Shown in pieces: positions 1 to 58,408 of a stretch of 64,000 bases of DNA. Source of the stretch: Bacillota bacterium (GTDB taxonomy: Bacteria > Bacillota > Halanaerobiia > B1SED10-174); assembly GCA_007122335.1 (NCBI GenBank), contig SKTZ01000029.1, forward strand, positions 5,593 to 69,592. The letters run 5' to 3'. The notes below the pieces were generated by a model that was not told where the DNA came from, ran no database searches, and saw only the letters and a list, made by a program, of their open reading frames with translations. The position numbers and the translations under genes are program-made. The first letter of the stretch is position 1. The number at the start of each line of letters is the position of its first letter.

Positions 1-394
1 GGAAGTGTTAATAATATTCAGTTCGGCTCCCCTGAGTATCCATAAATTTTCAACTTCCGGGGGGATCTGTAACATTGCTCCCATTAAATAATGGTGGGGA
101 CCCCCGGGAATGGAAGGACCATGTTCGGTAATTCCCAGGACCGAGAGGCCTGCTTTTTGGGCTGCGAAAACATTTTCCTGCACCGTACTGAAACCATGCC
201 CGCAGGCAACAGTATGGGTATGCAAATCAGCAATCAATTTCAATTTTCCCACCTACTCATTATTTATTATTAAGAAACTTCGCGGAGAAAGAATTTGCTC
301 CTGCTTGAAAAAAGCTAGGGCAGGGTCTGGGGAAGGAAAATTGATTTTTTTAGAGAAGAAGAACTTAATTAAAGTGGTAAAGGGGGTAATTTAT

Positions 395-844
395 TTGAAT
401 TTGGAAGAGAAACTTGCACCAGAATTTTCTTTGCCTGGAACGGATGGTAAGGACCACAGCCTGGAAGATTACAGGGGTAAGAAGATTGTTCTTTACTTTT
501 ACCCCAAAGATAATACCGGGGGCTGAACCAAAGAAGCCATCTCTTTTAGGGATCGGCATCAGGCTCTGGAAGAGCTTAATACCGTAGTACTGGGAGTTAG
601 CAAGGATGGAATGGCTTCTCACCACAGGTTTAGGGATAAATATGACCTACCATTTGTTTTGCTTTCTGATACCGAAAAAGAGGTCCTCCAACGGTACGGG
701 GTTTTAAATGAAAAAGGAGGGACTGTGCGCAGCACTTTTGTAATTGATGAAGAGGGTCTGGTAATTAAAGAATACAGGAAGGTTAAGGTCGAAGGGCATG
801 CCGAAGAAGTTTTAAATTTAATTCGAGATCAGAAGAAGTTTTAA
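395..844 (+). CDS. bcp: Bcp/PrxQ-type peroxiredoxin, putative selenoprotein (in-frame TGA 524-526 at the peroxidatic Cys position read as Sec)
   Basis: Track ORFs 110..526 and 611..844 share one frame and 527-610 has no stop. Translation reads LYFYPKDNTGG-[TGA]-TKEAISF..., which matches the Bcp active-site motif FYPKDNTPGCTKEA with TGA where the Cys codon is expected. The downstream part (MASHHRFRDKYDLPFVLLSD...GVLNEKGG...) is a typical Bcp C-terminus. Start placed at TTG 395 after AAGGGGG; start uncertain. Confidence 0.6.
536..576 (+). promoter_or_regulatory. putative bacterial SECIS-like stem-loop downstream of the bcp TGA (fold not resolved)
   Basis: Complementary segments CTCTT(541-545)/AAGAG(570-574) and AGCC/GGCT lie 15-50 nt after the TGA. 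Position is right for a bSECIS, but the structure is only hand-inspected. Confidence 0.2.
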
Positions 845-871: not shown

Positions 872-1225
872 ATGGGAGTTGATTTTTTGGGAAGAAAGGC
901 AATTTTTTGCACCGGGGATAAGCTGGGAAGAGGAGAGGAAGAACTGGGGAAAACACTGCTTCGCAATTTCTTTTATTCAATTGGGGAGGGAGATAACCAT
1001 CCCGATGCCGTTATTTTTATGAACAAAGGTGTTTACCTGGCCCAGGAAACATCAGAAATTGCCCTTTCACTGAAAAAGCTAGCCCAAAAGGGGGTTAAAA
1101 TCCTGGCATGCGGGACCTGCCTGGATTATTATGGGTTGAAGGATAAACCTCTAATTGGTGAGGTTTCCAATATGCATAGTATTACTGATATCCTGGGAGA
1201 ATCGGAACAGGTGGTGACAATCTGA
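872..1225 (+). CDS. DsrE/DsrF-like family protein
   Basis: 117 aa with a DsrE-like pattern (KAIFCTGDKLG...AVIFMNKGVYLAQE...ILACGTCLDYYG). Lies immediately downstream of the putative Sec-Bcp. Confidence 0.45.
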   Translation: MGVDFLGRKAIFCTGDKLGRGEEELGKTLLRNFFYSIGEGDNHPDAVIFMNKGVYLAQETSEIALSLKKLAQKGVKILACGTCLDYYGLKDKPLIGEVSNMHSITDILGESEQVVTI

Positions 1226-1470
1226 TGATCTGGATTATTGTTCTTGTAATTATCGTAATCCTTGCCCTGGTGTTTTTTTCTCCAGCTCAGAAGGAAAAAA
1301 GGAAACACGGTCAAATAAAAAAGCAGATCCAGAGAAAAATGAGAGTAAGTGAAGAGCGAGCAGATGAATACATTCGGGATATGAAGGGGAGGCTTAAGAA
1401 AAAATACCCCGGAAAAAGTGATCAGTGGTATCTTGAAAAAATTTTGTCTGACCTGGAAAGAGGAAGATAA
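1225..1470 (+). CDS. small hypothetical protein with N-terminal TM helix and basic C-terminus
   Basis: ORF track. ATG overlaps the upstream stop (ATGA). Hydrophobic N-terminus. Confidence 0.35.
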   Translation: MIWIIVLVIIVILALVFFSPAQKEKRKHGQIKKQIQRKMRVSEERADEYIRDMKGRLKKKYPGKSDQWYLEKILSDLERGR

Positions 1471-1493
1471 CCCACCTGCGGGTGGGTTTTTTT
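1471..1493 (+). terminator. rho-independent terminator
   Basis: CCCACC-TGCG-GGTGGG hairpin followed by TTTTTTT. Confidence 0.75.
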
Positions 1494-1548
1494 ATGAAAT
1501 AAGAAGGGAAAATTTTCCATAAATAGAAATTAATTTAGAGGTGGTTCA

Positions 1549-36324: not shown

Positions 36325-38076
36325 ATGAAAACTCGAGTTTTAGTAGGAATGGGGACCTGTGGAATTGCTGCAGGGGCAAGAAAAGTTATGGAAGCTCTTG
36401 AAAAAGGCCTGCAAGGGGTAGAAGGAGTCGAACTTTTGCCTACTGGCTGTGTGGGCTTATGTGAAAAAGAGGTAGTTGCTGAAATACAAAAAAATGGGGA
36501 AAAAACCATTTATGGTGACCTTACCCCGGAAAAAGTGGAGAGATTGATAGAGGAAGTAGTTTTAAAGGGTAATATAATTGAGGACTGGATTGCTGCCCGC
36601 CCCGAAGAACCCATCCTGGCCAAACAGGAGCGCATTGTTCTGGAGAATTGTGGGCATATTAACCCGGAAAATATAGATGAATACCTGGAAAAAGGTGGTT
36701 ATAAAGGGCTGGAAAAAGCTCTAAAGGATATGACCCCGGACCAGGTTGTGGAGGAAGTAAAAACTTCGGGGTTAAGAGGGCGTGGTGGAGGAGGTTTTCC
36801 CGCCGGCCTGAAATGGCAGTTTGCCAGCCAGGCCCCTGGAGATAAAAAATATGTTGTTTGTAATGCTGACGAAGGAGATCCAGGAGCATTTATGGACAGG
36901 AGCATAAAAGAGGGAGATCCTCATGCTCTCCTGGAGGGAATGCTTATTTGTGGTTATGCCATAGGCAGTGACGAAGGATATATTTATGTCCGGGCGGAAT
37001 ATCCCCTGGCCATTAAACGAATAAAGGTTGCAATGAAACAGGCCGAAGAACGAGGTTATTTAGGAGAAAATATCCTGGAAACAGATTATAACTTCCGGAT
37101 AAAAATAAAAGAAGGCGCTGGAGCGTTTGTCTGCGGGGAAGAAACCGCCCTGCTTGCATCAATTGAAGGGAGAATGGGACGTCCCCGCCCCAGACCGCCT
37201 TATCCGGCCACAAAAGGCCTTTGGAATAAACCGACCAATATTAATAATGTGGAGACCTATGCAAATATTCCTCGAATTATCAGGCGAGGTGGCGAAAAGT
37301 TCGCTCAAATAGGAACAGAGAAAAGTACGGGCACCAAGGTTTTTGCCCTAACGGGCAAAATTAATAATACAGGTTTGATTGAAGTTCCCATGGGGATTTC
37401 AATTAGAGAGATTATTTACGACATTGGGGGAGGCATTCCCGAGGGAAGAAAGTTTAAAGCTGTACAAATAGGAGGACCATCAGGAGGCTGTATTCCTGCC
37501 CACCTGTTGGATCTGCCCATTGATTACGATTCTCTGGTAGAATCAGGGGCAATTATGGGCTCAGGTGGTCTTGTAACAATGGATGAGGAGACCTGCATGG
37601 TTGATGTAGCCTGGTTTTTCCTTAATTTCACCCAGAAGGAATCATGTGGAAAATGCACTCCCTGCAGGGAAGGTACCAAACGAATGCTGGAAATCCTGGA
37701 GAGGATAAAAGCTGGGAAGGGGAAGAATGAGGACATTGAAAGGTTAAAATTTCTTGGCCGCAACATTGTGGATACTTCTCTTTGCGGACTTGGACAAACT
37801 GCTCCCAACCCGGTTTTGAGTACTCTACGCTTCTTTGAAGACGAATATCGGGCCCATATTGAAGAACAACGTTGTCCCGCCGGAGTTTGTGCTGATTTAC
37901 TGCGGTATGTAATTGTTCAGGAAGATTGCAAGCGCTGTTCAATATGTGTAAAAGTTTGCCCGGTGAATGCAATTAGCGGTAAACCAAAAGAAAAGCACCT
38001 TATTGACCAAGAAATTTGCACCAAGTGCAATGCGTGCCTGGAAAAATGTCCTTTTGACGCCATAGTTAAAAAGTAG
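36325..38076 (+). CDS. NuoF/HydB-family NAD(H)-binding FMN flavoprotein subunit with N-terminal [2Fe-2S] domain and C-terminal 2x[4Fe-4S] ferredoxin domain
   Basis: GRGGGGFPAGLKW FMN/NADH motif, the 51-kDa subunit SLBB cysteines, and two C-terminal CxxCxxCxxxCP motifs. Confidence 0.85.
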   Translation: MKTRVLVGMGTCGIAAGARKVMEALEKGLQGVEGVELLPTGCVGLCEKEVVAEIQKNGEKTIYGDLTPEKVERLIEEVVLKGNIIEDWIAARPEEPILAKQERIVLENCGHINPENIDEYLEKGGYKGLEKALKDMTPDQVVEEVKTSGLRGRGGGGFPAGLKWQFASQAPGDKKYVVCNADEGDPGAFMDRSIKEGDPHALLEGMLICGYAIGSDEGYIYVRAEYPLAIKRIKVAMKQAEERGYLGENILETDYNFRIKIKEGAGAFVCGEETALLASIEGRMGRPRPRPPYPATKGLWNKPTNINNVETYANIPRIIRRGGEKFAQIGTEKSTGTKVFALTGKINNTGLIEVPMGISIREIIYDIGGGIPEGRKFKAVQIGGPSGGCIPAHLLDLPIDYDSLVESGAIMGSGGLVTMDEETCMVDVAWFFLNFTQKESCGKCTPCREGTKRMLEILERIKAGKGKNEDIERLKFLGRNIVDTSLCGLGQTAPNPVLSTLRFFEDEYRAHIEEQRCPAGVCADLLRYVIVQEDCKRCSICVKVCPVNAISGKPKEKHLIDQEICTKCNACLEKCPFDAIVKK

Positions 38077-38091
38077 AGAGGGGGGAGATAA

Positions 38092-40779
38092 ATGGCGGAA
38101 ATCAGCGTTAAGATCAATGGGCAGGAAGTACAAATTGAAAAAGGAAAAACATTGCTTCAGGCTTGTGAAGAACTTGGTATAGATGTTCCAACACTGTGTT
38201 ATCATCCGCGGGTTGCAATTGAAGGAGCCTGCAGACTTTGCATGGTTGAGGACAAGAAATCAGGACAATTGATTGCTTCCTGTACTCTGGAAGCAGATGA
38301 TGGGATGGAAATAGAGACGGAATCCCCCCGGGTTGTTGAAGCCCGAAAACTGGTTTTGGATTTGCTCCTAGCCTCTCATGATGTTGATTGTTTTGCCTGT
38401 GAGAGAAATGGAGATTGCCGGCTTCAGGATTACTCCTACCGTTATGGAATTGAAAGAACGGCTTTTCCGGGAGAGCGGAGGGAGTTCCCTATTGATAACC
38501 AGAACCCTTTCTTTGAAAGGGATTATAACCGTTGTATCCAGTGCGGATTGTGTGTAAGGGCCTGTCACGAGATTCCCCAGGCCGGGGCCATTGATTTTGC
38601 CAACCGGGGTTTTTCCTCTGAGATAGCAACACCTTTCAATGTTCCCCTGGAGGATTCGACCTGTGTTTTTTGCGGGATGTGTGTGGAATTATGCCCGGTT
38701 GGTGCCCTGGTGCCCCGTTTGGACCGTTTCACCGGTAGGCCCTGGGAGATAGAAAAAGTAAGAACCACCTGTGCTTACTGTGGCGTGGGTTGTCAGATTG
38801 AATTGAATGTTAACGAGGACCGGGTTGTAGGGATCAGTGGCTATGGGGAAAGCGAACCCAATTATGGGGATTTATGTGTTAAAGGTAAATTCGGCTGGGA
38901 CTATATTCACCACCCCGAAAGACTAACCGCTCCCTTGGTCCGGAAGGAAGGCAAGCTTGTTCCAACCAGCTGGGAGGAAGCCCTCGATTATACCGCCCGA
39001 AAATTTAAGGAAATTAAGGAGGAACACGGTGGAGATGCTCTGGGAGGATTGACTTCAGCCAAGTGTACCAACGAAGAAAACTATCTTTTCCAGAAATTTG
39101 TTCGCGCTGCACTGGCAACCCATAATGTTGACCACTGTGCTCGCCTATGACACTCTGCTACAGTAGCCGGTCTGGCTACAGCATTTGGTAGTGGAGCAAT
39201 GACTAACTCTGTTGCGGAAATTGAAAAGGCTCCAGTTATCTTCATCATTGGATCCAACACTACAGAAGCCCATCCTGTAATTAGTTACCGGGTTAAAAAG
39301 GCCGCCCGGGAAGGCAGCAAGATTATTGTCGCCGATCCAAGACGGATTGAACTGGCTGAATATGCTGATATCTGGATGCAGCACCGACCCGGGACCGACG
39401 TAGCCCTGCTGAACGGGCTGATCCACATTATTTTGAAGGAAAACCTTTGGGATCGAAAATTTGTAGAGGAACGAACCGAGGGTTTTTCGGAATTAGAAAA
39501 AGCCGTTTCTAAATTTACTCCGGAATTAGTAAGCCAAATTACTGGTGTTCCAACAGAGCAATTAACAGAAGCTGCCCGCATTTATTCCACCGCTGACGCA
39601 GCTTCAATTCTCTACGCCATGGGGATCACCCAGCACGTTTCTGGGACCGATAATGTTCTGACTCTGGCCAATCTGGCCATGCTGACCGGAAATTTGGGTA
39701 AACCGAATGCAGGTGTAAACCCGCTTCGAGGACAGAACAATGTCCAGGGAGCCTGTGATATGGGTGGATTACCCAATGTGTATCCGGGTTATCAAAAAGT
39801 TGATGACCCCGCAGTCGCAGCAAAATTTGCCGAAAGCTGGGGAAATGTACCCGGAAATGAACCGGGCCTTACAATGATGGAAATGATGGAAGCGGCTGAA
39901 AAGGGAGATATTAAAGCACTGTATATTATGGGTGAAAACCCGGTGCTGAGCGAGCCGGATAGTACCCACAGTAAGGAAAATCTTTCTGCTCTTGATTTCC
40001 TTGTTGTGCAAGATATTTTCCTCAGCGAAACTGCGGAACTGGCTGATGTGGTTTTACCGGGTGTTTCGTTCGCCGAGAAGGAAGGAACTTTTACCAATAC
40101 CGAACGAAGGGTTCAAAGGGTAAGGCAGGGAATCCGGCCTCTGGAAGGAGCCATGGGTGACTGGAAAATTACCCTGGAACTGGCCAAACGAATGGGGTAT
40201 GACTGGAAGTACAATTCCCCTGAAGAAATATTTAATGAGATGGCAGCTTTAACACCTTCATATGCTGGTATTGATTATGACCGGATTGAAAAACAAGGCC
40301 TGCAGTGGCCCTGTCCCGACAAAAATCACCCGGGAACAAGGTACCTGCATCAAGGGAAATTCCCCAGGGGGAAAGGAAAGTTCCACGGGATAGACTTTAT
40401 TCCGCCCGCGGAACTTCCTGACGAAGAATATCCCTTCCTGCTCACCACCGGCCGCAAACTAACCCACTACCACACGGGAACCTTGAGTCGGAGAAGTTCA
40501 GGTCTTTCCACCATAGATCCCGAAGAAATGGTGGAGATCAATCCCAAAGATGCAGAAGCACTCGGACTGGAGGAGGGGGATAAAATGTTAATTGCCTCCC
40601 GCCGGGGAGAGGTGACAGCTCGGGCCAAACCAACCGAAAGAGTTCCGGAAAAAATGATCTTTATGACCTTCCATTTCAGTGAATCTGCTGCAAATGTTCT
40701 TACCAACCCTGTATTGGATCCTGTAGCTAAAATACCGGAGTTTAAGGTTTGTGGTGTAAAAATAAAAAAAGATGAATAA
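38092..40779 (+). CDS. fdhA: NAD-linked formate dehydrogenase catalytic (alpha) subunit, selenocysteine-containing (in-frame TGA 39148-39150)
   Basis: Track ORFs 38092..39150 and 39199..40779 are one frame. N-terminal [2Fe-2S]/[4Fe-4S] NuoG-like domain, then HNVDHCARL-[TGA][20 protein letters not shown]. This matches the conserved Sec/Cys-His active site of molybdopterin FDHs. The remainder is a molybdopterin oxidoreductase domain. Confidence 0.85.
39156..39185 (+). promoter_or_regulatory. SECIS-like stem-loop for the fdhA selenocysteine
   Basis: GTAGCC-GGTCT-GGCTAC hairpin (39163-39179). It starts 13 nt after the TGA and has a GGUC-containing apical loop, as in enterobacterial fdhF SECIS elements. 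Confidence 0.5.
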
Positions 40780-42382: not shown

Positions 42383-42735
42383 TGCGTCAAATTATCCCTT
42401 TTTTCTTAACCCTGGTCCTGGGAGCTGCTCTGCTACTGGTGGTCGCCGAAATGCCTCCGTTTGGGGATATAAATAACCCCGCTCATAATGTAGTTAGCGA
42501 ACGCTACCTGAATCAGGGAGTTCGGGAAACCGGAGCACAGAATATTGTCACTGCTATAATCACGGACTACCGTGCCTATGATACTCTGGGAGAGGTCACG
42601 GTTTTGTTTGCTGCTATTGCTGCAGTGCTTACTGTTTTAAACAGGTTGCGCTTGGGAGTAATCTGTCCTGAAGACAGGGAAAGGGGACTGACAGATGAGG
42701 ATGCAGGAGATCCTGATACTGAAGATAGTTGTTAG
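42379..42735 (+). CDS. MnhB-domain subunit (MrpB/MbhE-like)
   Basis: NIVTAIITDYRAYDTLGEVTVLF matches the MnhB signature. Confidence 0.6.
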   Translation: MMRQIIPFFLTLVLGAALLLVVAEMPPFGDINNPAHNVVSERYLNQGVRETGAQNIVTAIITDYRAYDTLGEVTVLFAAIAAVLTVLNRLRLGVICPEDRERGLTDEDAGDPDTEDSC

Positions 42736-43126
42736 ATTTGTTATTCCCTTTATCCAGGTCTATGGATTTTATGTAATTACTGCTGGACATCTTAGTCCTG
42801 GTGGTGGTTTTGCCGGGGGAACAATTGTTGCTGCCAGCATGGTTTTATATGCCCTGACTTTTGATGCTTCCCAGGGTCTTGAAAAACTCTCCCATGAAAG
42901 AGCATCCCTGTTTGAGAGTCTGGGAGCTATCTGGTATGTTGCCCTTGGTTTTTTGGGAATCCTTGTCGGAGGTAATTTCCTTACAAATGGGCAGATTGGA
43001 ATTCCTCTTGGCACACCGGGCTACCTGATAAGTGGGGGTTTGATTCCCCTTCTTTCTTTTGGGATTGGAATAAAAGTCGCAGTTACCGTTGTCAGCCTTT
43101 ATTATTCGCTGGTTGAGGAGGATTAG
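42695..43126 (+). CDS. MrpB C-terminal-like subunit (MbhF-like)
   Basis: GHLSPGGGFAGG motif typical of the MrpB second half. Start may be ATG 42701. Confidence 0.55.
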   Translation: MRMQEILILKIVVRFVIPFIQVYGFYVITAGHLSPGGGFAGGTIVAASMVLYALTFDASQGLEKLSHERASLFESLGAIWYVALGFLGILVGGNFLTNGQIGIPLGTPGYLISGGLIPLLSFGIGIKVAVTVVSLYYSLVEED

Positions 43127-43128
43127 TT

Positions 43129-43506
43129 ATGGCCGAAGCCCTTGCAGCCCTGGGCCAGAATTATTTCTTTTATTATGCTCTTATTCTTTTTATGGTTGGA
43201 TTTTATACCACACTGAGCCATTCAAATATTTTAAAAAAAATCATTGGGATCAATATAATGGAAACCTCAATATTCCTATTTTTTGTTGCCCTTGGTTATG
43301 TTGAGGGTGGGCAGGCTCCAATAATGGGTAGAGGAGCCGAAGGAGGGCCTTATATGAATCCCCTGCCCTCGGCCTTGATTCTTACTGGAATTGTTGTATC
43401 GGTAAGTATTACGGCTTTTGCCCTGGCTTTGATGGTTAAACTTTATCATTTTTATGGAACCCTTGACGCTGATGAAATTGTTATGCTGCGAGGAGAAAGA
43501 CAATGA
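43129..43506 (+). CDS. mrpC: Mrp antiporter subunit C (NuoK/MnhC-like)
   Basis: 125 aa, three TM helices, NuoK-like. Confidence 0.7.
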   Translation: MAEALAALGQNYFFYYALILFMVGFYTTLSHSNILKKIIGINIMETSIFLFFVALGYVEGGQAPIMGRGAEGGPYMNPLPSALILTGIVVSVSITAFALALMVKLYHFYGTLDADEIVMLRGERQ

Positions 43507-44993
43507 TATATCAGCTACCTGTTCTAATTGTGGTCCAACTTCTTTTGGGTTCTTTTCTTATGCCCATTGTGGGGAGGATTCGCAATCAGCTAATCCCCCA
43601 TATTTCGCTGTTTTTAATGGGTCTCGCCAATGTTTTCTCTATAATTTTACTTTTCCGGGTTGTCCGGGAAGGAAACATTCACTACCACCTTGGAAACTGG
43701 GCACCTCCCTGGGGCATTGAAATTGTTGCAGACCTTTTAGGTGCCTACATGGCAGTTATTATTACGGGAATAAGCTTTTTGGTCCTGGTTTTTGCCTGGC
43801 GGGATATTCAGAGAGAAATAAATTACGCCCTCAGGGGCTGGTTTTATACCCTGGTCCTACTGATTTCCGGGGCAATGGTAGGAATGGTTTTAACCAATGA
43901 TTTGTTCAATCTTTATGTTATGGTTGAAATCGTATCCCTTTGTGGTCCCGCCCTTGTGGCTATCCGGAACAACCGGCTTGCTGTGGAAGCAGGCTTTAAA
44001 TATCTGGTAATGATTGCTCTTGGTTCGGGCCCGATTCTTTTCGGGATTGCTCTAATTTATATGATTACCGGCCATTTGAACATGACTTTCGCCGGCCAGG
44101 AAGTATTAAATGTAATTCATGAATATCCCAGAGTTGCTCTTTTAGCCCAGGCCTTTTTCATCGTAGGTTTTGGGGTTAAGGCGGCCCTTTTTCCCCTGCA
44201 TGTCTGGCTCCCAGATGCTTATACTTCCGCACCTTCCCCCTCAAGTGCTCTTCTGGCCGGACTTGCGGCAAAAGTATATATAGTTGGTTTGACCCGGGTC
44301 CTTTTCAATCTTTATGGAATTGACGTACTTGCTACCACACCGCTTTTTACCATTCTCAAAGTAATGGCGGTGGCAGGGATTATCATGGGTTCAATAATGG
44401 CTCTAAACCAGAAAGATATAAAAAGGTTGGTGGCCTATTCAAGTGTTGCTCAAATTGGGTACATATTCCTGGGGCTTAGCCTGGCTACAGGGTTTAGTGT
44501 AACCGGGGCTATTCTCCACATTTTGAATCATGCCTTAATAAAGTCAATGATGTTTCTCTGCTGTGGAGTAATTATTTACCAGAAAAAAACCAGCAATGTG
44601 GATGAACTGGGGGGAGTGGGGAAGGAATTTCCCATAACCATGATTTGCTTTGGTATTGGTGCTTTTGCCATGGTTGGTATTCCCATGCTCAATGGTTTCA
44701 TTAGCAAATGGTATATCAGCCTGGGAGCCCTGGAATATGGGGGTCTGGCTGGTTTAATGTATTTGCTTGTGATTATTATCAGCAGCCTTTTAAATGGTCT
44801 TTATTATCTACCGGTATTAATTAAAGCCTTTTTGGGTGGGGATTCCCAAAAAGAAACTGTTTTTGATAAAGCACCAATTACTTTGATATTGCCAATTGTA
44901 ATTTTGGCTGCAGGTATAATTATTCTGGGGTTATTACCCTTTGTTCCGCTGCAAATTGCTGCAGACGCGGCCCAGCACTTGTTGGGCCAGTAA
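43503..44993 (+). CDS. mrpD: Mrp antiporter subunit D (NuoN/NuoM-like proton-conducting membrane transporter)
   Basis: 496 aa, ~14 TM. Conserved antiporter-like motifs (GFGVKAALFPLHVWLPDAYTSAPSPSSAL). Confidence 0.8.
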   Translation: MIYQLPVLIVVQLLLGSFLMPIVGRIRNQLIPHISLFLMGLANVFSIILLFRVVREGNIHYHLGNWAPPWGIEIVADLLGAYMAVIITGISFLVLVFAWRDIQREINYALRGWFYTLVLLISGAMVGMVLTNDLFNLYVMVEIVSLCGPALVAIRNNRLAVEAGFKYLVMIALGSGPILFGIALIYMITGHLNMTFAGQEVLNVIHEYPRVALLAQAFFIVGFGVKAALFPLHVWLPDAYTSAPSPSSALLAGLAAKVYIVGLTRVLFNLYGIDVLATTPLFTILKVMAVAGIIMGSIMALNQKDIKRLVAYSSVAQIGYIFLGLSLATGFSVTGAILHILNHALIKSMMFLCCGVIIYQKKTSNVDELGGVGKEFPITMICFGIGAFAMVGIPMLNGFISKWYISLGALEYGGLAGLMYLLVIIISSLLNGLYYLPVLIKAFLGGDSQKETVFDKAPITLILPIVILAAGIIILGLLPFVPLQIAADAAQHLLGQ

Positions 44994-45028
44994 AAAACAC
45001 TATGAATTAACAGGAGGAGGCAACCGGG

Positions 45029-46525
45029 ATGGTACAGGGAGTAGAAACGCATTCGCATTTACCGGGATTGGTCGTATTAATTCCAATAATTTTTACTGCA
45101 TTGGTAGGGATTTTCCAGAAAAGGTCATTTTTGCTCCGCAACTGGCTTTTTATTAGCGGCGCGGCAATTACCTTTGCTGGAATGGCTTTGATGGGCTATT
45201 ATGTCCTGCAGGGAAGAATACTGGTTATCAACTATCTTGTGGCCATGTTTCCGTTTACCATTACATTCAGAGTGGATACCCTAAGTTTTCTTATTGGGGT
45301 TGTTGCTGCAGGAGTATGGCTATTGGCTTCAATATATTGCTTGCAGTACATGAAAGATGACCATGCTCCCAACCGTTATTTCCCGGTTCATATTTTTACC
45401 CTGGCTGGTTCGCTAGGGGTATTTCTTGCGGGGAACCTCTATACTTTTTTCCTCTTTTATGAGGTAATGGCTTTTTCCGGTTACTTATTTGTTATCCATG
45501 CTGAAACTCCAGAAGCTTTTAAAGCTGGATCCAGGTACCTGATGGTAACCATCCTGAGTGGTATCCTGGTTTTCACTGGGGTTATTATTACCTATCAGCT
45601 GGCAGGAACTCTTGACCTGGGTTCTTTAGGAATCATTCCCGAGGCCAATGTTGTCTCCCTGATCGCCTTTGTGGCTTTTATAATTGGTTTTGGTTTTAAG
45701 GCGGGTCTTTTTCCGCTGCATACCTGGTTGCCTGCTGCTCACCCGGTTGCGCCGTCTCCAGCGAGTGCTTTGCTTTCTGGGATTTTGATCAAAACTGGAG
45801 CTTACGGAATAATCCGGGTAACCTATAACGTTTACGGGATCGAGATGATGCGGGATACTGGCTGGCCCACTATTCTGCTGATTTTCGCTGCGATTACCAC
45901 TCTTTACGGATCCATGGCTGCTCTGGTTCAGGATAATCTTAAAAGACGTCTCGCTTATTCAAGTATCAGTCAGATCGGATATATACTTATGGGGGGAGCC
46001 CTTCTTACCGAGCGTGGCCTGGCTGGTGATGTTTTTCACATTGTCAGTCATGCGACAATCAAAAGCACCTTGTTTTTAACTGCAGGGGCAATTATTACCA
46101 AGACGGGGATTAAATATGTAAGCCAGATGGCAGGAGTGGGGCGAAAAATGCCCTATACCATGGGGGCTTTTACCCTTGCTGCACTGGCTATGATCGGGAT
46201 TCCACCTTTAAATGGTTTTGTTAGTAAATGGGCCCTGGCCCTGGGTGCTTTAGATGCTGGCCAGCCAGGCTATGCGGTTGTTCTTTTAATCAGTAGTATG
46301 TTGAACGCCCTGTACTATTTACCAATTGTAATTCTTGCTTATTTCCGCAAACCGGAAGAAGGGACAGTTCTTTATGGAGATATGTTGCGTTACGATGAAG
46401 CCAGGGCGAGTATGCTTGTGCCAATTTTAATTCTGGCTCTGAGTTTGGTCATATTCAATATCCTACCTGTTAACCTGCCACTGGTTCTGGCCGAATTCTC
46501 CGCACGGGCCCTTTTCCAGCACTAG
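45029..46525 (+). CDS. second MrpD/NuoM-like antiporter subunit
   Basis: 498 aa paralog (GFGFKAGLFPLHTWLPAAHPVAPSPASALLS). Confidence 0.8.
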   Translation: MVQGVETHSHLPGLVVLIPIIFTALVGIFQKRSFLLRNWLFISGAAITFAGMALMGYYVLQGRILVINYLVAMFPFTITFRVDTLSFLIGVVAAGVWLLASIYCLQYMKDDHAPNRYFPVHIFTLAGSLGVFLAGNLYTFFLFYEVMAFSGYLFVIHAETPEAFKAGSRYLMVTILSGILVFTGVIITYQLAGTLDLGSLGIIPEANVVSLIAFVAFIIGFGFKAGLFPLHTWLPAAHPVAPSPASALLSGILIKTGAYGIIRVTYNVYGIEMMRDTGWPTILLIFAAITTLYGSMAALVQDNLKRRLAYSSISQIGYILMGGALLTERGLAGDVFHIVSHATIKSTLFLTAGAIITKTGIKYVSQMAGVGRKMPYTMGAFTLAALAMIGIPPLNGFVSKWALALGALDAGQPGYAVVLLISSMLNALYYLPIVILAYFRKPEEGTVLYGDMLRYDEARASMLVPILILALSLVIFNILPVNLPLVLAEFSARALFQH

Positions 46526-46541
46526 GAAGGATGTAGATATA

Positions 46542-48956
46542 ATGGTTAATGCAATCGGGCCGAGCATGCAAAACGCGTTGCTTGTAACCGCGATATTTGC
46601 TCCCCTTCTGGCCGCTGGAGCCCTGTTTAAAGTAAGGGTTTTTAAAACGGCACACAAAATTGCTCTTGTGGCAATTGGGCTTGCTGTTGGGGCGTTAGTT
46701 GCTGTTGTTGGGGAGCCGATAGAATTTATCTGGGAAGGTTTCCTCGGGGTAAGATTTGTCCTTGCTCCTGATTACATGGGGATTTTCCTTGCCATTATGG
46801 CCCTTGTTTTATGGTTTCTTTATACTCTTTTTAGCCTTGATTTTATGCAGAGAAGCCATAATTCAATTCGTTTTCTTTTCTTTTCCCTGCTTTCCCTGAC
46901 TGGAACCCTTGGTGTTTTTCTTGCAGGGGATCTTTTTACAATGTTTGTCTTCTTTGAATTTATGGCCTTTGCCTCTTTTCCCCTGGTTATCCATGAGGAG
47001 ACTGAAGAGGCTCACCGGGCGGGCAAACAGTACCTTTATATTGGAGTGCTGGGAGGCCTGACTATTTTGCTGGGCCTTTTTCTGCTGTACCATCGCCTGG
47101 GAACTCTTGTATACAGTGAACTGGGAGGAGCACTGGCTGGTGGGTCCCCGGTGGATATAATAATTATCGCTGGTCTGCTGCTCGGGTTTGCCATAAAGGC
47201 GGGCCTGGTTCCAGTCCACTTCTGGGTACCCCAGGGTTATGTTGCCGCCCCGGCACCTGGTAGCGCAATCCTTTCTGCCGTTCTTAAAAAATGTGGAGTT
47301 TTTGGGATTATCCGTTTGCTCTTTTTAATGGCTCCGATGTTAACTTTCGGGCAGGTAATACTTGGTTTTGGTTTATTAACAATGGTTTTGGGATCGCTAC
47401 TGGCCTTTTTTGAGCATAACGGGAAAAGAATACTTGCTTACAGCAGTGTAAGCCAGGCGGGTTATATTATGGTAGGGTTCGGCGGAGGCGCGATAATGGC
47501 TGAAACTGGAGTAATGGGAGGTCTTGGTTCTTTTTTCCACGTTCTCAACCATGCTCTCTTCAAAGGAAGCCTATTTTTAGCTTTGGGTTATACTTTTCTG
47601 CGAACCCGGGAATTCAATATTTATCGCCTGGGTAACCTCTGGAAGAAGATGCCCTTTACAACCATTTTAGCAGTTGTTTCTGCAGCCGGGCTAATGGGAT
47701 TACCTCTTTTTAACGGTTATCCCAGCAAAACAATGATTCACCACGCCATTACTTTCGCCGAAAGTGAAACTCAAATGGCGATATACGGATATGCTGAAAC
47801 CCTTTTTAATATTGGTGCCGCAGGGACCACTGCTTATTGCATCAAGCTGATTTATAATGTTTTCTTCGCTCCCCGGGAGCCTGAGTTTACAGGGGAAAAA
47901 GAAAAACCCCTGGTTCAGGGGATATTTATGGTTTTAATTGTAGCCATGCTTTTTATCGGGCTGTTTCCAACTCTGACCATGGAAACCATTATTTTCCCCG
48001 CTGCAGGTGCTTTTTTCCTGGACCCTGATTTTGTTGATTATAAATTAGGTGGGTACAATTTTTTCAATGCTTATGATCTGCGGGGGGCTTTTAAAATTCT
48101 TTTAATTGGTCTGGGGTTAACCGCTATCAACCTTGTTTTGGTCAAAAAACGAATAGACCTTCCCCGCTGGTTATCAATTGAAAGGCTTGTTTTGAATCCT
48201 TTAATTAAGGCTTTAGGGGCAATTCTTGGTGCTTCATATTATTTTATTAATAATCGGCTAATGGGTTTTGGGACTGGTCTCGTAGAAGGCTATAAAAAAG
48301 GACTTCCCTTTATTAACCACCTGGATGGCTATGTTGATGAAATAGGAAAGAGAACAGATGATCTTTTTGCCGGATTTGTTTTCAAGACCTCGGGTAGCCA
48401 TGACCAGAGAAAGCTGATCAATCTGATTTTAGATTATGGAAAGGAAGAAAAAGAAGAAGCTGAGCTGCATGGGTTCTGGAATTGGTTAACGGGTGAAGGA
48501 ATTTTACAACCAGTTGATAAAGAGAATGTTGATTCCCCCGATTTTATTGGAAGTGTTGAAGATTTCAGCAAAAGAATTCAGGAAATGATGGAAAAAGAAG
48601 AGTTGACGGAAAAAGAGAAAAATCGCGTAGAAAGACTTTTTGCCCGGCTTATGGCTTTAGAAGAAAAGGGCATTTCCCCAAAAAGTATGGAGGAGAAAAG
48701 TTATCCTCATTTGCGGATTATCCAGCGAATGGAAGAGATATTCCAGTACCTTACGGGGAATATACAAACTGTTGACGGGTTGGAAAAAGACCAGGAAAAA
48801 GCCCGGGTAGACAAGAAAAAAATCGAAAAAAAGAAGGAAGCTCTGGATTCCGGCTGGGGCAAGTGGAGCGTGTTGAACCTTAATTTTGACATGATTATCC
48901 TTGCTGTTACTCTGGTAATTGCGGTTATATTGCTGGTATTTTTTGCCCAGATTTAA
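46542..48956 (+). CDS. MrpA/NuoL-like antiporter subunit with ~230-aa hydrophilic helical extension and C-terminal TM anchor
   Basis: N-terminal ~520 aa antiporter core (GFAIKAGLVPVHFWVPQGYVAAPAPGSAILS). Then a charged, coiled-coil-like region (EEKEEAELHGF...KEKNRVERLFARLMALEEKG...). It ends with a single TM (MIILAVTLVIAVILLVFFAQI). Confidence 0.75.
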   Translation: MVNAIGPSMQNALLVTAIFAPLLAAGALFKVRVFKTAHKIALVAIGLAVGALVAVVGEPIEFIWEGFLGVRFVLAPDYMGIFLAIMALVLWFLYTLFSLDFMQRSHNSIRFLFFSLLSLTGTLGVFLAGDLFTMFVFFEFMAFASFPLVIHEETEEAHRAGKQYLYIGVLGGLTILLGLFLLYHRLGTLVYSELGGALAGGSPVDIIIIAGLLLGFAIKAGLVPVHFWVPQGYVAAPAPGSAILSAVLKKCGVFGIIRLLFLMAPMLTFGQVILGFGLLTMVLGSLLAFFEHNGKRILAYSSVSQAGYIMVGFGGGAIMAETGVMGGLGSFFHVLNHALFKGSLFLALGYTFLRTREFNIYRLGNLWKKMPFTTILAVVSAAGLMGLPLFNGYPSKTMIHHAITFAESETQMAIYGYAETLFNIGAAGTTAYCIKLIYNVFFAPREPEFTGEKEKPLVQGIFMVLIVAMLFIGLFPTLTMETIIFPAAGAFFLDPDFVDYKLGGYNFFNAYDLRGAFKILLIGLGLTAINLVLVKKRIDLPRWLSIERLVLNPLIKALGAILGASYYFINNRLMGFGTGLVEGYKKGLPFINHLDGYVDEIGKRTDDLFAGFVFKTSGSHDQRKLINLILDYGKEEKEEAELHGFWNWLTGEGILQPVDKENVDSPDFIGSVEDFSKRIQEMMEKEELTEKEKNRVERLFARLMALEEKGISPKSMEEKSYPHLRIIQRMEEIFQYLTGNIQTVDGLEKDQEKARVDKKKIEKKKEALDSGWGKWSVLNLNFDMIILAVTLVIAVILLVFFAQI

Positions 48957-50232: not shown

Positions 50233-51950
50233 TAAAAAGAATTAAAGTGGGGATGGCCAGCTGTGGTATTGCTGCCGGAGCAGGTGAAGTGCTGGAATTA
50301 CTGCAGGAAATGGCCGGAGATAATAAAGTTGTTGAAGTTGGTTGTATCGGACACTGTTATGCTGAACCTCTTGTTGAAGTTGAAACAGATTCCGGGGACT
50401 ATATTTTTGAAAAAGTCCAACCCAAGGAAGAAGACCTGCAGAAGATTATTGACCTGGATGAATTTTCTCGCTTTCAACCCCATTCCCCGCGTGTTGATAA
50501 AGAAAGACAATTGATTACCTCTCTCGCCGGGAAAATTGTTCCCACCTCTCTTGAGGAATACAGGGCTAACAAAGGATACGAGGGCTTGAAAAAAGCTCTG
50601 GAAATGGAACCGGATGCAATTGTTGACGAAGTGAAAACTTCCAAGTTGCGTGGCCGTGGTGGGGGAGGTTTTCCCACGGGATTAAAATGGAGCTTCCTGG
50701 CAGCCAAGGACAGCGAGCAAAAAGTTTTAATTTGCAATGCTGACGAGGGAGATCCGGGGGCTTTCATGGATCGGACTTTAATGGAATCACTTCCCCATCA
50801 GGTTTTGGAAGGAATGTTGATCGGGGCGAAAGCAACTGGTGCCCGCCAATTATTTATTTATTGCCGGGCGGAATATCCCCTGGCAGTAAAAAATTTGAAT
50901 ATTGCGATTGAACAGATTGAAAAAGAAGGCCTTAATATAATCGATGGAGAGCCCGTTAAAATTATGGTTAAAGAAGGAGCGGGGGCATTTGTTTGCGGAG
51001 AAGAAACTGCCCTCATTCACTCCCTTGAAGGGAAGAGAGGGACTCCAAGGTATCGCCCCCCATATCCAACTGACTATGGTTTCCACGGCTATCCCTCGGC
51101 AATAAACAATGTTGAAAGTTTTGCGAATATCCCCCTGATTGTCCGGGATGGAGGGGAAAATTTTGCAGCTACGGGAACCGAGAATAGCACGGGAACAAAA
51201 CTCTTTGCTCTCGCCGGAGACCTGGAGTATTCTGGACTTGTTGAGGTTCCCATGGGAATTTCTATAGGGGAAGTTGTCTACGACATTGGAGGGGCTGAAC
51301 CGGGAAGTGTTAAGGCTGTCCAGATTGGAGGCCCCAGCGGTGGTTGCATTCCTGCGGAACACTTTGATACTCCCATTGACTACGACTCTCTCACTTCCCT
51401 GGGTGCAATTATGGGGTCAGGTGGCTTGATTGTAATTGGAAATAACCGTTGCATGGTTGAAACTGCTCGCTATTTCCTGGAATTTACAACCAGGGAAAGC
51501 TGCGGGAAGTGTACTTTCTGCCGGATCGGAACCAAGCGAATGCTGGAGACTCTGGAAAGAATAACCGGTGGGGAAGGTGGTCCCGAAGATGTAGAGCTCC
51601 TCGCTGATCTGGGTAAGAAAATTATTCAGGGATCCTTGTGTGGGCTCGGTCAAACCGCTCCCAACCCGGTGCTTTCTACCCTCAAATATTTCAATAATGA
51701 ATACCTGGCTCACGTCGAAGAAGGCCATTGTGCGGCCATGGAGTGCAAGGCCCTGGTTGATGTTTTTATCGATAGGGAAACCTGCATTGAATGCGGGCAG
51801 TGTATTAAGAATTGCCCCGTTGATTGTATAAGCGAGGATTACGTGATTGATAATGAAATTTGCACCCGCTGCAACAGCTGTATTGAGGTTTGTCCTGTAG
51901 ATGCCATTGCCCGGGTTGCGAAAGGAGGGGAAGTCAGTGTCGGAAATTAA
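50229..51950 (+). CDS. NuoF/HydB-family NAD(H)-binding flavoprotein with N-terminal [2Fe-2S] and C-terminal 2x[4Fe-4S] domains (second copy)
   Basis: GRGGGGFPTGLKW motif and CxxCxxCxxxCP x2 at the C-terminus. Paralog of 36325..38076. Confidence 0.85.
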   Translation: MIKRIKVGMASCGIAAGAGEVLELLQEMAGDNKVVEVGCIGHCYAEPLVEVETDSGDYIFEKVQPKEEDLQKIIDLDEFSRFQPHSPRVDKERQLITSLAGKIVPTSLEEYRANKGYEGLKKALEMEPDAIVDEVKTSKLRGRGGGGFPTGLKWSFLAAKDSEQKVLICNADEGDPGAFMDRTLMESLPHQVLEGMLIGAKATGARQLFIYCRAEYPLAVKNLNIAIEQIEKEGLNIIDGEPVKIMVKEGAGAFVCGEETALIHSLEGKRGTPRYRPPYPTDYGFHGYPSAINNVESFANIPLIVRDGGENFAATGTENSTGTKLFALAGDLEYSGLVEVPMGISIGEVVYDIGGAEPGSVKAVQIGGPSGGCIPAEHFDTPIDYDSLTSLGAIMGSGGLIVIGNNRCMVETARYFLEFTTRESCGKCTFCRIGTKRMLETLERITGGEGGPEDVELLADLGKKIIQGSLCGLGQTAPNPVLSTLKYFNNEYLAHVEEGHCAAMECKALVDVFIDRETCIECGQCIKNCPVDCISEDYVIDNEICTRCNSCIEVCPVDAIARVAKGGEVSVGN

Positions 51951-53976
51951 ACTGACCATAGACGGAAAACAGATTACAGCCCCCAGAGGGAAGACCATAC
52001 TTGAAGTGGCCAAAGAAAATGGGATAGAAATCCCGACCATGTGTCACGATGATAGAATAAGCCAGACCACCTCCTGCTTTGTTTGTATTGTCCGGGAAGG
52101 GAAGAATGGAAACTGGATGCCCTCCTGCTCTGCAGAAGCCCAGGATGGGATGGAAGTTGATGCATCAAGTGATCTAGTTCGGGATATGCGGAAAACCGCC
52201 CTGGACCTGCTCCTTTCTGAGCATAGCGGAGATTGCGAGGCTCCCTGCACGATTTCCTGTCCCGCCCATGCCCGGGTTGAAGAATACGTGAGAGCAGGAC
52301 GGGACGGTGATTTGCGGAAAACACTGGAAATTGCCAAGGAGCGTATTCCCCTGCCCCTCTCAATTGGAAGGGTTTGTCCGCGGTTTTGTGAAAAGGACTG
52401 CCGGCGTAATGTGTTAGATAATGAAGGTGTTGCCATTAACGATTTCAAACGCATTTCGGCCGACCTTTATTATGATGAATATATGGAGGAACGGAAAGAA
52501 CTGACCGGACAAAAGGTTGCTATTATCGGTTCTGGCCCTGGCGGACTGGCAACTGCCTATTTCCTGAGGTTAGAAGGTGTGGCCTCTGATATTTACGAAA
52601 AATTACCTGAGGCCGGAGGTATGCTCCGTTACGGTATTCCAGAATACCGCTTGCCCAAGAAGGTTTTGGATAAAGAACTGGCTCATTTTGAAAAAATGGG
52701 TGGTATTAAAATATACTGTAATAACGAATTGGGCAAAGACATCCAGCTGGATAAACTCAAAAAAGAATATGATGCAGTTGTGGTAGCTGTTGGTTCCTGG
52801 AAGGCCAGCGGAATGAGAACTGAAGGGGAAGAGCTGGCCAGGGGAGGCATTGACTGGCTGGAAGAGCTGGCCCTTAATGGCTGGAAAGGTGAAGACCCTG
52901 GAGAAACCATAGTTGTAGGTGGTGGAAACACCGCCATGGACTGTGTACGCAGTGCGCTTCGCCTGACTGATGAACCTGTTCACTGTATGTACCGCCGGAC
53001 GGAAAAAGAAATGCCGGCCGAGCAAATTGAGATAGATGAAGCACGGGAGGAAGGTGCCCGGTTTAATTTCCTAACTCAGCCCATTAAACTTCGCAGAGAA
53101 AACGGGAAACTTGTTCTGGAATGCTTGCGGATGGAACTGGGTGAACCAGATGCTTCGGGAAGAAGGCGTCCCGTGCCCATTGAAGGCAGTGAATTTGAAG
53201 TTGCCGCAGATACTGTTATCGCTGCTATCGGACAGAAAACCCTTGCTCCAAAAGGGCTTCCAACTAACAAGTGGGGCGACGTAGATGTTGAAGAAGCTGA
53301 CTGCCGGGCAGAAGGTAATGTTTTTGCTGCAGGTGACTGTGTAAGTGGTCCAGCAACAGTTGTCGAAGCAGTTGCCGGTGGAAGAAGAACTGCCCTGGGA
53401 ATACTGGCCTACCTTAAAGGAGAAGAGTGCCAGCTTCCCCGTCAGATTAATGTCTCGCGCGGACACTGGCAGAGCATGTCCGAAGACGATCTGGTCTACC
53501 TTTTTGAACCCGATAAAAACAAAAGAGTCCCTCTGCGTTTGATACCCCTGGAAGAGAGAACTTCTACCTTTAAAGAAGTTAGTTATACCTTTACCGAAGA
53601 GGAAATTTTGGAAGAAGGAAAACGCTGTATTGAGTGTAGCTGTACTGCCAAAGGAGATTGTAAGCTTAAAGACTTCTCTGAAACCTATGGAGCCCATCCG
53701 GAAACATTTGGTGGAGAGAAAGGAAATAATACCTACAATTCCCGCCATCCCCACATAATAATGGATAACGGAAAATGTGTAAAATGTGGGATTTGTGTAA
53801 AAGTCTGCAGCGAGGTCGTTAACGAATATCTCCTGGGCTTTAAAAACCGGGGCTTTAAAACCAAGGTTGAAACTGCATTTGATACAACCCTTCCTGAATT
53901 CTGCACCGATTGCGGTGAATGTATTGAAGCCTGCCCGGTGGGAGCCCTGGATTGGAAAAAGAAAAAGGACGAATAA
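51937..53976 (+). CDS. GltD/NfnB-like NAD(P)H-dependent FAD oxidoreductase fused between NuoG-type N-terminal [2Fe-2S] and C-terminal His-ligated/[4Fe-4S] cluster domains
   Basis: N-terminal ferredoxin-like [2Fe-2S] region ([22 protein letters not shown]...MCHDD...CFVC). Then the GltD-type two-cluster motif ([10 protein letters not shown]...CPRFCEKDC) and the FAD/NAD(P) Rossmann motif ([15 protein letters not shown]). The C-terminus carries [21 protein letters not shown] and [15 protein letters not shown] 51937 after AAAGGAGGGG. Confidence 0.7.
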
Positions 53977-57209: not shown

Positions 57210-57239
57210 TAATTGCTAGTAATAAGTGGTTATGTTATA

Positions 57240-57830
57240 ATTAATTGCGCATCGGCGGTGCAGTATCCTAGTCAGCTTTGTACTCTTGAAGGCGGGCCTA
57301 AAAATCCGTCAAAGGGCACATCGATGAAGTTCCTGGTTGTGGCTACTGACGCCCAGTCGGGGGTCATAGCTGGGAGTTAAGGATTTCGGGGCGATCCACA
57401 ATGGCATGTGGGCGTGGACCCTGATTCCGCGGAGGCCCGGATACAAGTCGGGAGCTAGTGTCCGGGGAACCTGCAGAAACCGCAAGGTAGCTGCAGTGTA
57501 GCCTGCTTTGAGTGGTAAGGGGAGAGGAGGGTATTAAGTCCTGCTTCCCAGGGGCCCTAGGAAGTAGTTCCTTTACCTCTGAAACCCTTACTGCAAAAGA
57601 AGCTAGGGAGTAATTAAGGCTGTCAAGGAAAACTTCTAGGCTGTCCCACTGTGGGGATAGACCGGGGATTGAAGTGTGGTCTGAGTGGTAATCCAGCCCT
57701 GCATATGGTGACATTGCAGAGTGATTTAAAGGGAAACCGCCAAAAGGGCAACCTTTTGGAGATCACTGGGAAAGCCTGCTGGACCTAAGCCGCAGCATTT
57801 ATCCGGTCTATTACCGCCGATGCGCCTGGA
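57240..57830 (+). ncRNA. ole: OLE (ornate, large, extremophilic) RNA candidate
   Basis: A ~580-nt GC-rich, ORF-free interval lies between ispA and a small membrane-protein gene. It is closed by a perfect 12-bp terminal helix GCGCATCGGCGG (57247-57258) / CCGCCGATGCGC (57814-57825). It contains many internal hairpins, for example CTGCAG..CTGCAG. The flanking gene order matches the published OLE locus. Strand inferred from synteny. Confidence 0.7.
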
Positions 57831-57853
57831 ATTATTTTTTGGGGGGAAAAATA

Positions 57854-58408
57854 TTGAACAAGAATCTCCAGACGGGAATTACAATGGGGGTATCAACTTT
57901 TTTTATTGCCATCCTCGTGGTGGCTTTATCCCGTTTGGCGGTAGCCAACCTGACCGCTTTTCTGGCAACAGTTGTTTTTCTCCTGATTATAACCATTGGT
58001 GTTCTGTTTGATATGATTGGGGTCGCGGCAGCCGCGGCCGATGTTGCTCCATTTAATGCCCGGGCGGCCCGGAAAGATTTTGGAGCCAGGACAGGCCTGC
58101 AACTGGTTCAAAACGCAGATAGAGTAGCAACCTTTTGCAGCGATATTGTTGGTGATATTTGCGGAATTGTAAGTGGTGCGCTGGGTGCAATGATCGTAGT
58201 TCGCCTGGCCTTCGCAGTTGATTTTAGTGAAGCTGTTCTAAACATAACAATTGTTGCCCTGGCAGCTGCTTTAACAGTTGGCGGGAAAGGTTTTTGTAAG
58301 GGGATTGGGATAAACAGGGCCAACGAAATTATTGGTTTTGTGGGTAATTTAATTGCACTTGTCCAGGGCTTTAACCCCGGAAAAAGAAAAGGAGGGCGCA
58401 GTAAATGA
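57854..58408 (+). CDS. oapA: OLE-associated membrane protein A candidate
   Basis: Small four-TM membrane protein immediately downstream of the OLE candidate and upstream of dxs. Start ambiguous: TTG 57839, TTG 57854 or ATG 57884. Confidence 0.5.
   Translation: MNKNLQTGITMGVSTFFIAILVVALSRLAVANLTAFLATVVFLLIITIGVLFDMIGVAAAAADVAPFNARAARKDFGARTGLQLVQNADRVATFCSDIVGDICGIVSGALGAMIVVRLAFAVDFSEAVLNITIVALAAALTVGGKGFCKGIGINRANEIIGFVGNLIALVQGFNPGKRKGGRSK

Follow-up and report, generated by a model that had tools for sequence, protein, structure and literature searches.

A Bcp/PrxQ-type peroxiredoxin gene of soda-lake Bacillota with a probable selenocysteine codon at the peroxidatic position

PrxU of Eubacterium acidaminophilum, an anaerobic Gram-positive bacterium, contains selenocysteine (Sec). 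It is represented by the model NF040737, which is named thioredoxin-dependent peroxiredoxin. The Sec peroxiredoxin (Sec-Prx) that carries a TxxU motif, assigned to COG1225/PF00578, is an established prokaryotic selenoprotein family that occurs in anaerobic bacteria able to decode Sec, Clostridia among them (PMC1088965, PMC1794560, PMC13188914). Twelve Sec-Prx were counted in sequenced bacterial genomes; Table 3 of the same paper lists Clostridia with Sec-Prx, and several Cys-to-Sec conversions were inferred (PMC1794560). The family is also tabulated in a 2026 review (PMC13188914). Insertion of Sec in bacteria is modelled with a consensus element (bSECIS) that has a loop of 3–9 nt with a G as its first or second nucleotide, a stem of 4–16 bp, a UGA-to-loop distance of 16–37 nt and an MFE not above −7.5 kcal/mol, and according to the same review a subset of real SECIS elements fails this model (PMC13188914).

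The window, by which we mean the whole 64,000-nucleotide stretch of DNA that was analysed, contains a Bcp/PrxQ-type peroxiredoxin gene at positions 395–844 (+) that the list of open reading frames splits in two at a TGA. The original prediction had treated the two pieces as one gene, and this proved right: 395–844 translates whole, from a TTG start to a TAA stop, and the sole internal stop in the frame is the TGA at 524–526 (+), so that the translation reads LNLEEK...FYPKDNTGG(stop)TKEAISFRD...DQKKF(stop) and comprises 149 residues including the predicted Sec44. A ribosome-binding site, AAGGGGG at 380–386 (+), is invariant in the alignment of orthologues and the start codon follows 8 nt downstream; in two orthologues the TTG at 395 is replaced by ATG.

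For matching against Pfam, NCBIfam and solved structures, the protein was supplied with Cys at the stop. It can be seen that it then matches Pfam PF00578 (AhpC-TSA) over profile positions 4–122 of 124, with 135.7 bits against a gathering cut-off of 26 (E = 1e-39), and that its best matches among solved structures (5enu, 3drn, 4eo3 and the 5iiz series; best E = 2e-32) almost all bear the name bacterioferritin comigratory protein, which places it nearer to Bcp/PrxQ than to AhpC, Tpx or Prx6. The top NCBIfam matches are PrxQ and Bcp models, both below their equivalog cut-offs (NF053650, PrxQ, 150.3 against 260 bits; NF006960, thiol peroxidase Bcp, 114.9 against 140), and the protein is therefore placed in the subfamily but outside those curated equivalogs. 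PrxU is likewise a peroxiredoxin with the same overall chemistry; membership of NF040737 was rejected, as the protein reaches 64 bits against a cut-off of 270 on this 233-position model, which describes a different Prx subfamily. Membership of the thiol peroxidase Prx-SUH selenoprotein (NF045827) was rejected as well, at 28.4 bits against 298.

The active site PxxxTxxU is present as P37-K-D-N-T41-G-G-U44. When the protein is aligned with 13 Bcp homologues that contain Cys (55–64% identity), the stop falls exactly in the peroxidatic-Cys column (PGC-T), where it had been predicted to lie, and the columns of T41 and of the catalytic Arg, R112, are invariant. The position of the resolving Cys (+5) is occupied by Ile, again as predicted, and the protein as a whole has no Cys at all; several of the nearest Cys-type clostridial Bcp homologues likewise carry Ile at +5 instead of the resolving Cys. 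Compared with the Cys-type Bcp/PrxQ proteins (the thioredoxin-dependent thiol peroxidases of Clostridium, 5enu, 3drn and Xanthomonas Bcp 5iiz), the window protein is 57–64% identical to clostridial Bcp, but it has TGA/Sec in place of Cys and, together with its whole clade, a 7-residue loop deletion relative to the clostridial homologues. With the TxxU Sec-Prx family it shares the fold, the PxxxTxxU active site and Sec for the peroxidatic Cys, whereas its clade differs in being Cys-free and in having a two-hairpin structure after the UGA that lies off the consensus SECIS. The window protein and its close orthologues also have GG-U instead of PG-U, while distant members of the clade have PG-U. 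A non-Pro residue before G-U was considered as a Sec-specific trait and rejected, as S and A also occur there in Cys forms. We conclude, with a probability of roughly 0.9, that 395–844 encodes a thioredoxin-fold peroxidase of the Bcp/PrxQ subfamily in which the TGA at codon 44 specifies selenocysteine, the peroxidatic residue of the PxxxTxxU motif.

Orthologues were found through searches with the C-terminal fragment and through homologues of the adjoining YedF-like gene. Together with the window they form a clade of seven sequences and six distinct proteins (the window, L212, L210, L209, L214/L215 and L217), with amino-acid identities to the window protein of 94% for L212, 86% for L210, 85% for L209, 61% for L214/L215 and 59% for L217. 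All of these orthologues have TGA at the same codon, are Cys-free, and share the 7-residue loop deletion and the gene order.

Sec forms of Bcp turned out to be far from confined to this clade. The original prediction had described Sec peroxiredoxins as rare; this was not borne out, as a scan of metagenome contigs with the degenerate DNA pattern FYPKDxTx[G/A]-TGA-T returned at least 120 loci. At least 114 metagenomic Bcp genes have TGA at the same codon with the frame open for at least 95 residues of Bcp-like sequence beyond it. Among the matches listed, the resolving Cys at +5 is kept in 60 of 114 such genes, and 19 of 114 are Cys-free like the window protein. A scan of a genome collection with the whole protein, in which the generic YFYPKDNT pattern prevailed, supplied, among the matches listed, 78 Cys controls and one Sec form (L015); these relatives are at most 57% identical, and the scan missed the window's own lineage. 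In a neighbour-joining tree, which carries no support values and draws on a biased Cys sample, the clade falls beside two other Cys-free Sec forms. We also noted two metagenome contigs that each carry two different Sec-Bcp genes a few kb apart, L194 (at 388 and 4155) and L199 (at 2790 and 4367).

Use of Sec on the same contig had been claimed for fdhA, and the sequence supports this. The fdhA gene at 38092–40779 (+) is interrupted by a TGA at 39148–39150 (+) in the context HCARL-TGA-HS, and the Fdh-alpha model TIGR01591 matches on both sides of it. The TGA is followed at 39163–39179 (+) by a canonical SECIS hairpin, GUAGCC-GGUCU-GGCUAC, whose loop (GGUCU) begins at +22, the classical arrangement. 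A NuoF-like subunit is encoded at 36325–38076 (+), ahead of this formate dehydrogenase alpha subunit with its N-terminal Fe-S domains, and the pair at 36325–40779 looks like an NAD-linked selenium-dependent formate dehydrogenase. None of the 23 window ORFs scanned against NCBIfam is selA, selB or selD, and no tRNA-Sec (selC) was found within the window, whose sole tRNA is a tRNA-Leu. From the Sec-TGA of fdhA and its SECIS we infer that the organism decodes Sec. The genetic code is the standard one, since TGA also serves as the stop codon of 4 of 25 ordinary genes in the window.

We then consider the RNA downstream of the candidate Sec codon, with positions counted from the U of the UGA as +1. 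Two hairpins form in the 60 nt that begin with the TGA, with a total energy of −18.1 kcal/mol (z = −2.5). Hairpin 1 spans 536–557 (+ strand; +13 to +34) and has a core stem in which 539–543 pair with 549–553 (+16–20 with +26–30), closing a U-rich loop at 544–548 that contains no G; its energy is −8.3 to −9.8 kcal/mol, with z = −2.85 at −9.8. Hairpin 2, at 562–576 (+ strand; +39 to +53), is GGCUCU-GGA-AGAGCU with an energy of −7.1 kcal/mol. When synonymous codons were resampled according to the codon usage of the window, the observed stability was matched with p = 0.018 for hairpin 1 and p = 0.021 for hairpin 2, and for the whole 60-nt region only 0.2% of synonymous recodings of the same peptide were as stable.

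Both hairpins are maintained in the clade. RNAalifold applied to the seven clade sequences predicts exactly hairpins 1 and 2, with 77 of 77 cells paired. The loop of hairpin 1 across the clade is YUUYM. Pair 16/30 (539/553) switches between A-U and G-C, and two further pairs alternate between wobble and Watson-Crick; every other substitution inside the hairpins affects a loop, a bulge or the lower stem of hairpin 1, none of which belongs to the pairs counted. The covariation score was, however, reached by 11 of 500 column shuffles of these seven sequences, which contain one double change, and we therefore regard the covariation as no more than suggestive. In the stem of hairpin 2 no nucleotide changes across the clade, even between proteins that are 59% identical and at a divergence where other synonymous sites are near saturation. 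Two other folds were tried and rejected. A long stem enclosing the UGA, obtained in the first fold of 515–600, has its middle helix broken in L209. A long hairpin pairing 18–31 with 39–51 around a GGCAUCA loop fits the consensus in the window, but it has five broken cells across three orthologues and was set aside in favour of the two-hairpin model. An Rfam scan around the Sec-Prx gene gave nothing relevant.

As in the consensus bSECIS, the structure lies inside the coding sequence directly downstream of the UGA. Hairpin 1 fits the consensus in loop length, stem, spacing (17–18 nt) and energy, but lacks the loop G; hairpin 2 has a U-GGA-A loop that fits the G[G/U] pattern, but its spacing of 41 nt and its energy of −7.1 kcal/mol are outside the rules. 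Neither hairpin satisfies all of the bSECIS rules together. The expectation of a SECIS-like structure downstream was thus upheld as far as the presence of conserved stem-loops is concerned, while the published consensus is not fully satisfied.

To see how this compares with related genes, we set 118 Sec-Bcp sequences (three from the window's clade, the others among the matches listed) against the 78 Cys-type genes. The best hairpin with a loop start between +18 and +30 has a median energy of −11.6 kcal/mol in Sec-Bcp genes and −6.1 kcal/mol in Cys-type genes (p = 1.5e-11). In a simple scan of loci L081–L200, among the matches listed, 32 of 97 stable Sec-Bcp hairpins have no G at either of the first two positions of the loop, and this departure from the consensus is therefore common in the Sec-Bcp family. 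In many of these G-less hairpins the apical loop is U-rich and formed on the Phe codon of the conserved xFRD motif, as in hairpin 1, which by sequence comparison is at the usual SECIS position of other Sec-Bcp genes. When pairing was counted in fixed registers over all Sec-Bcp genes, only the dominant register i+j = 44 separated Sec (46 of 115) from Cys (5 of 78) genes; the register of the window, i+j = 46, is a minority one that alone is not significant, strict registers being too rigid owing to bulges.

The departure of the downstream structure from the consensus SECIS (PMC13188914) is the point that speaks for an alternative in which the UGA is read without selenium, either by insertion of Cys on tRNA-Sec or by a near-cognate Trp or Cys tRNA, or in which it serves mainly for regulated termination, with normally no selenoprotein being made. 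We consider this alternative improbable. The UGA stands at the catalytic position, where exchange of Sec and Cys is the known pattern of the family (PMC1088965, PMC1794560); the Sec system of the organism works, judging by fdhA; and about one third of the stable Sec-Bcp hairpins among the matches listed are likewise without the loop G.

Sec insertion at this UGA is also favoured by the conservation of the codon and of the sequence on either side of it. The in-frame TGA at 524–526 (+), in the peroxidatic-Cys column, is kept in the seven clade sequences and in eight independent contigs. Purifying selection is evident from pN values of 0.02–0.26 against pS values of 0.28–0.83, alike in both halves flanking the TGA, and synonymous sites within the clade are near saturation (pS 0.55–0.83, the closest pair excepted). 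Fully conserved synonymous codons cluster at codons 37–60, around the TGA (Fisher p = 0.012). Taken together, the conservation of the TGA and the purifying selection on both halves rule out, for practical purposes, that the gene is a pseudogene, that the stop arose in assembly or that there are two independent small genes.

For a pseudogene, in which a Cys codon (TGC or TGT) would have mutated to TGA and the gene would be dead, it can be said that in public records the gene is called as two fragments, of 43 and 77 residues, and that the nearest full-length database homologues all have Cys. We nevertheless regard it as very improbable, as the TGA has been retained between lineages with nearly saturated synonymous sites, purifying selection acts strongly on both halves, neither a frameshift nor a second stop is present, and conservation at the nucleotide level peaks around the TGA; the shared downstream RNA structure argues against independent recent TGA mutations. 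The original prediction had named orthologues with an intact TGC gene, alongside other decay in this copy, as grounds against Sec; what we found instead was that TGA is kept at 59–94% identity and that pN is far below pS, which is not decay. Its preference for Sec read-through over a pseudogene is accordingly backed by the TGAs of the orthologues, the coding constraint, the use of Sec in fdhA and the conserved downstream stem-loops.

Two separate small genes, encoding a 43-residue peptide and a protein of 77–105 residues, are called in some records, and both pieces do exist there as annotated genes. The chance that they are real is slight: codons 45–72, from the TGA to the first downstream ATG, are conserved in frame as coding sequence, neither a start nor a ribosome-binding site can be made out downstream of the TGA, and the C-terminal piece by itself would be missing the catalytic residue along with half of the thioredoxin fold. 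The public gene calls (L201–L208 and L210–L213) give only the 77-residue C-terminal fragment, sometimes with an N-terminal fragment of 43 or 73 residues, and no source names the fragments of the Sec-Prx, which leaves the selenoprotein unannotated in the deposited MAGs. The C-terminal fragment is recorded on 19 contigs (NCBI MAGs, JGI and Logan; soda-lake sediment samples), and of these the eight independent contigs that were checked all have the TGA; in four of these the gene shows one synonymous variant at another site. A stop created by sequencing or assembly error, which has in its favour only the general possibility of such errors in genomes assembled from metagenomes, is therefore negligible, as the TGA is found in eight of eight contigs from different samples and assemblers as well as in divergent orthologues.

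The selenoprotein gene has two downstream neighbours. At 872–1225 (+), with a start at ATG 872 or TTG 887, lies a gene for a short YedF-like/DsrE-like protein with a CGTC motif (TIGR03527, Pfam DsrE). It scores 130.8 bits against TIGR03527 (cut-off 110), but only profile positions 85–194 are matched; given this and a length of 112–117 residues, the protein has no TusA-like domain and departs from the two-domain architecture of YedF, in which a TusA-like N-terminal domain precedes a DsrE-like C-terminal domain with a CGxC motif. Most YedF-like homologues have 190–205 residues and carry PF01206. An exact look-up of the 117-residue ORF gave no match because gene callers start at TTG 887. The next gene, at 1225–1470 (+), comes from the ORF list and encodes an 81-residue protein with a hydrophobic N-terminus for which there is no family match in Pfam or NCBIfam; its start overlaps the preceding stop (ATGA), and overlapping proteins of 81–82 residues with a hydrophobic N-terminus occupy the same position, after the YedF-like gene, in the clade. 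A scan detected a terminator-like stem-loop and T run at 1469–1496 (+), consisting of AACCCACCTGCGGGTGGGTT followed by TTTTT, with the stem-loop part at 1469–1488. The three genes, for the Sec-Prx, the YedF-like protein and the 81-residue protein, would thus form an operon that ends at this terminator-like site.

The YedF-like gene lies directly 3' of the Sec-Prx gene in all clade members, and the trio is kept down to 52–54% identity of the YedF-like protein. No YedF-like neighbour was found by tblastn at about 200 other Bcp loci, and the linkage is therefore specific to the window's clade. It is possible that the YedF-like protein is functionally linked to the Sec-Prx, for example in its reduction or in the handling of selenium. 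A conserved ILACGTCLDYYG motif was observed in the short YedF-like proteins (L209, L210, L212, L214, L217 and L218), and the peroxiredoxin-linked copies share an N-terminal Cys in FC[TS]G. In Desulfuribacillus (L218) the short YedF-like gene adjoins a Se_S_carrier gene and an aminotransferase-family gene (Aminotran_1_2, Aminotran_5, Cys_Met_Meta_PP), and no peroxiredoxin gene is called in the 2 kb on either side of it.

Under the reading that codon 44 specifies Sec, the mRNA just downstream of the UGA would fold during translation, and SelB with Sec-tRNA(Sec) would bind the fold and deliver Sec at the UGA, competing there with release factor 2. In catalysis the selenolate would attack the peroxide and be converted to a selenenic acid. 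As the protein is Cys-free it has no internal resolving residue, and the selenenic acid would have to be reduced by an outside thiol partner; thioredoxin is the general expectation for this reductant, and the adjoining CGTC protein is a possible alternative. The insertion of selenium at the UGA, the hairpin bound by SelB and the identity of the reductant are all deduced here from sequence and comparison.

A more particular proposal, which we offer tentatively and think rather doubtful, is that the soda-lake clade has a two-part Sec-insertion signal and that its Cys-free peroxidase forms a dedicated module with the co-transcribed YedF-like CGTC protein. Hairpin 1, at the usual SECIS position, would on this proposal have lost its loop G and would serve as a folded spacer that brings the invariant GG-loop hairpin 2 within the range of SelB from a distance of 41 nt, beyond the 16–37 rule. 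In the module, the YedF-like CGTC protein would act as the reductant or the selenium-handling partner of the Cys-free peroxidase.

The gene is a mis-annotated member of a known selenoprotein family, and the enzyme is of an already-known type that is common in anaerobes. What is mildly unusual about the clade is the combination of a Cys-free protein, a non-consensus two-hairpin signal and a YedF-like operon partner. The practical value of the finding lies in correct annotation, and current understanding is not overturned by it. Since Sec-Bcp genes are fragmented in public records, both here and in metagenomes, the antioxidant capacity and the selenium dependence of anaerobes are under-counted. 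The clade could also serve as a compact and well-conserved system in which to ask how far a bacterial SECIS may depart from the consensus and how a peroxiredoxin without a resolving Cys is recycled.

Some other features of the window were noted in passing. A 691-residue GltD/YgfK-type Fe-S flavoprotein is encoded at 51901–53976 (+), which matches in part the models for the putative selenate reductase subunit YgfK and for 'diclust_near_Sec'; no in-frame TGA was seen in this gene. Genes for a multisubunit cation/proton antiporter of the Mrp/Mnh type run from 42695 to 48956 (+) and comprise B, C and three D/A-like subunits, which would suit an alkaliphile or a halophile. At 57239–57833 (+) there is a full-length OLE (ornate large extremophilic) RNA, matching Rfam RF01071 with 495.7 bits over model positions 1–616. 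Such RNAs are characteristic of Bacillota that are anaerobic or extremophilic, which fits a soda-lake origin. The OLE RNA is followed by a 189-residue ORF at 57839–58408 and then by dxs at 58405–60357.
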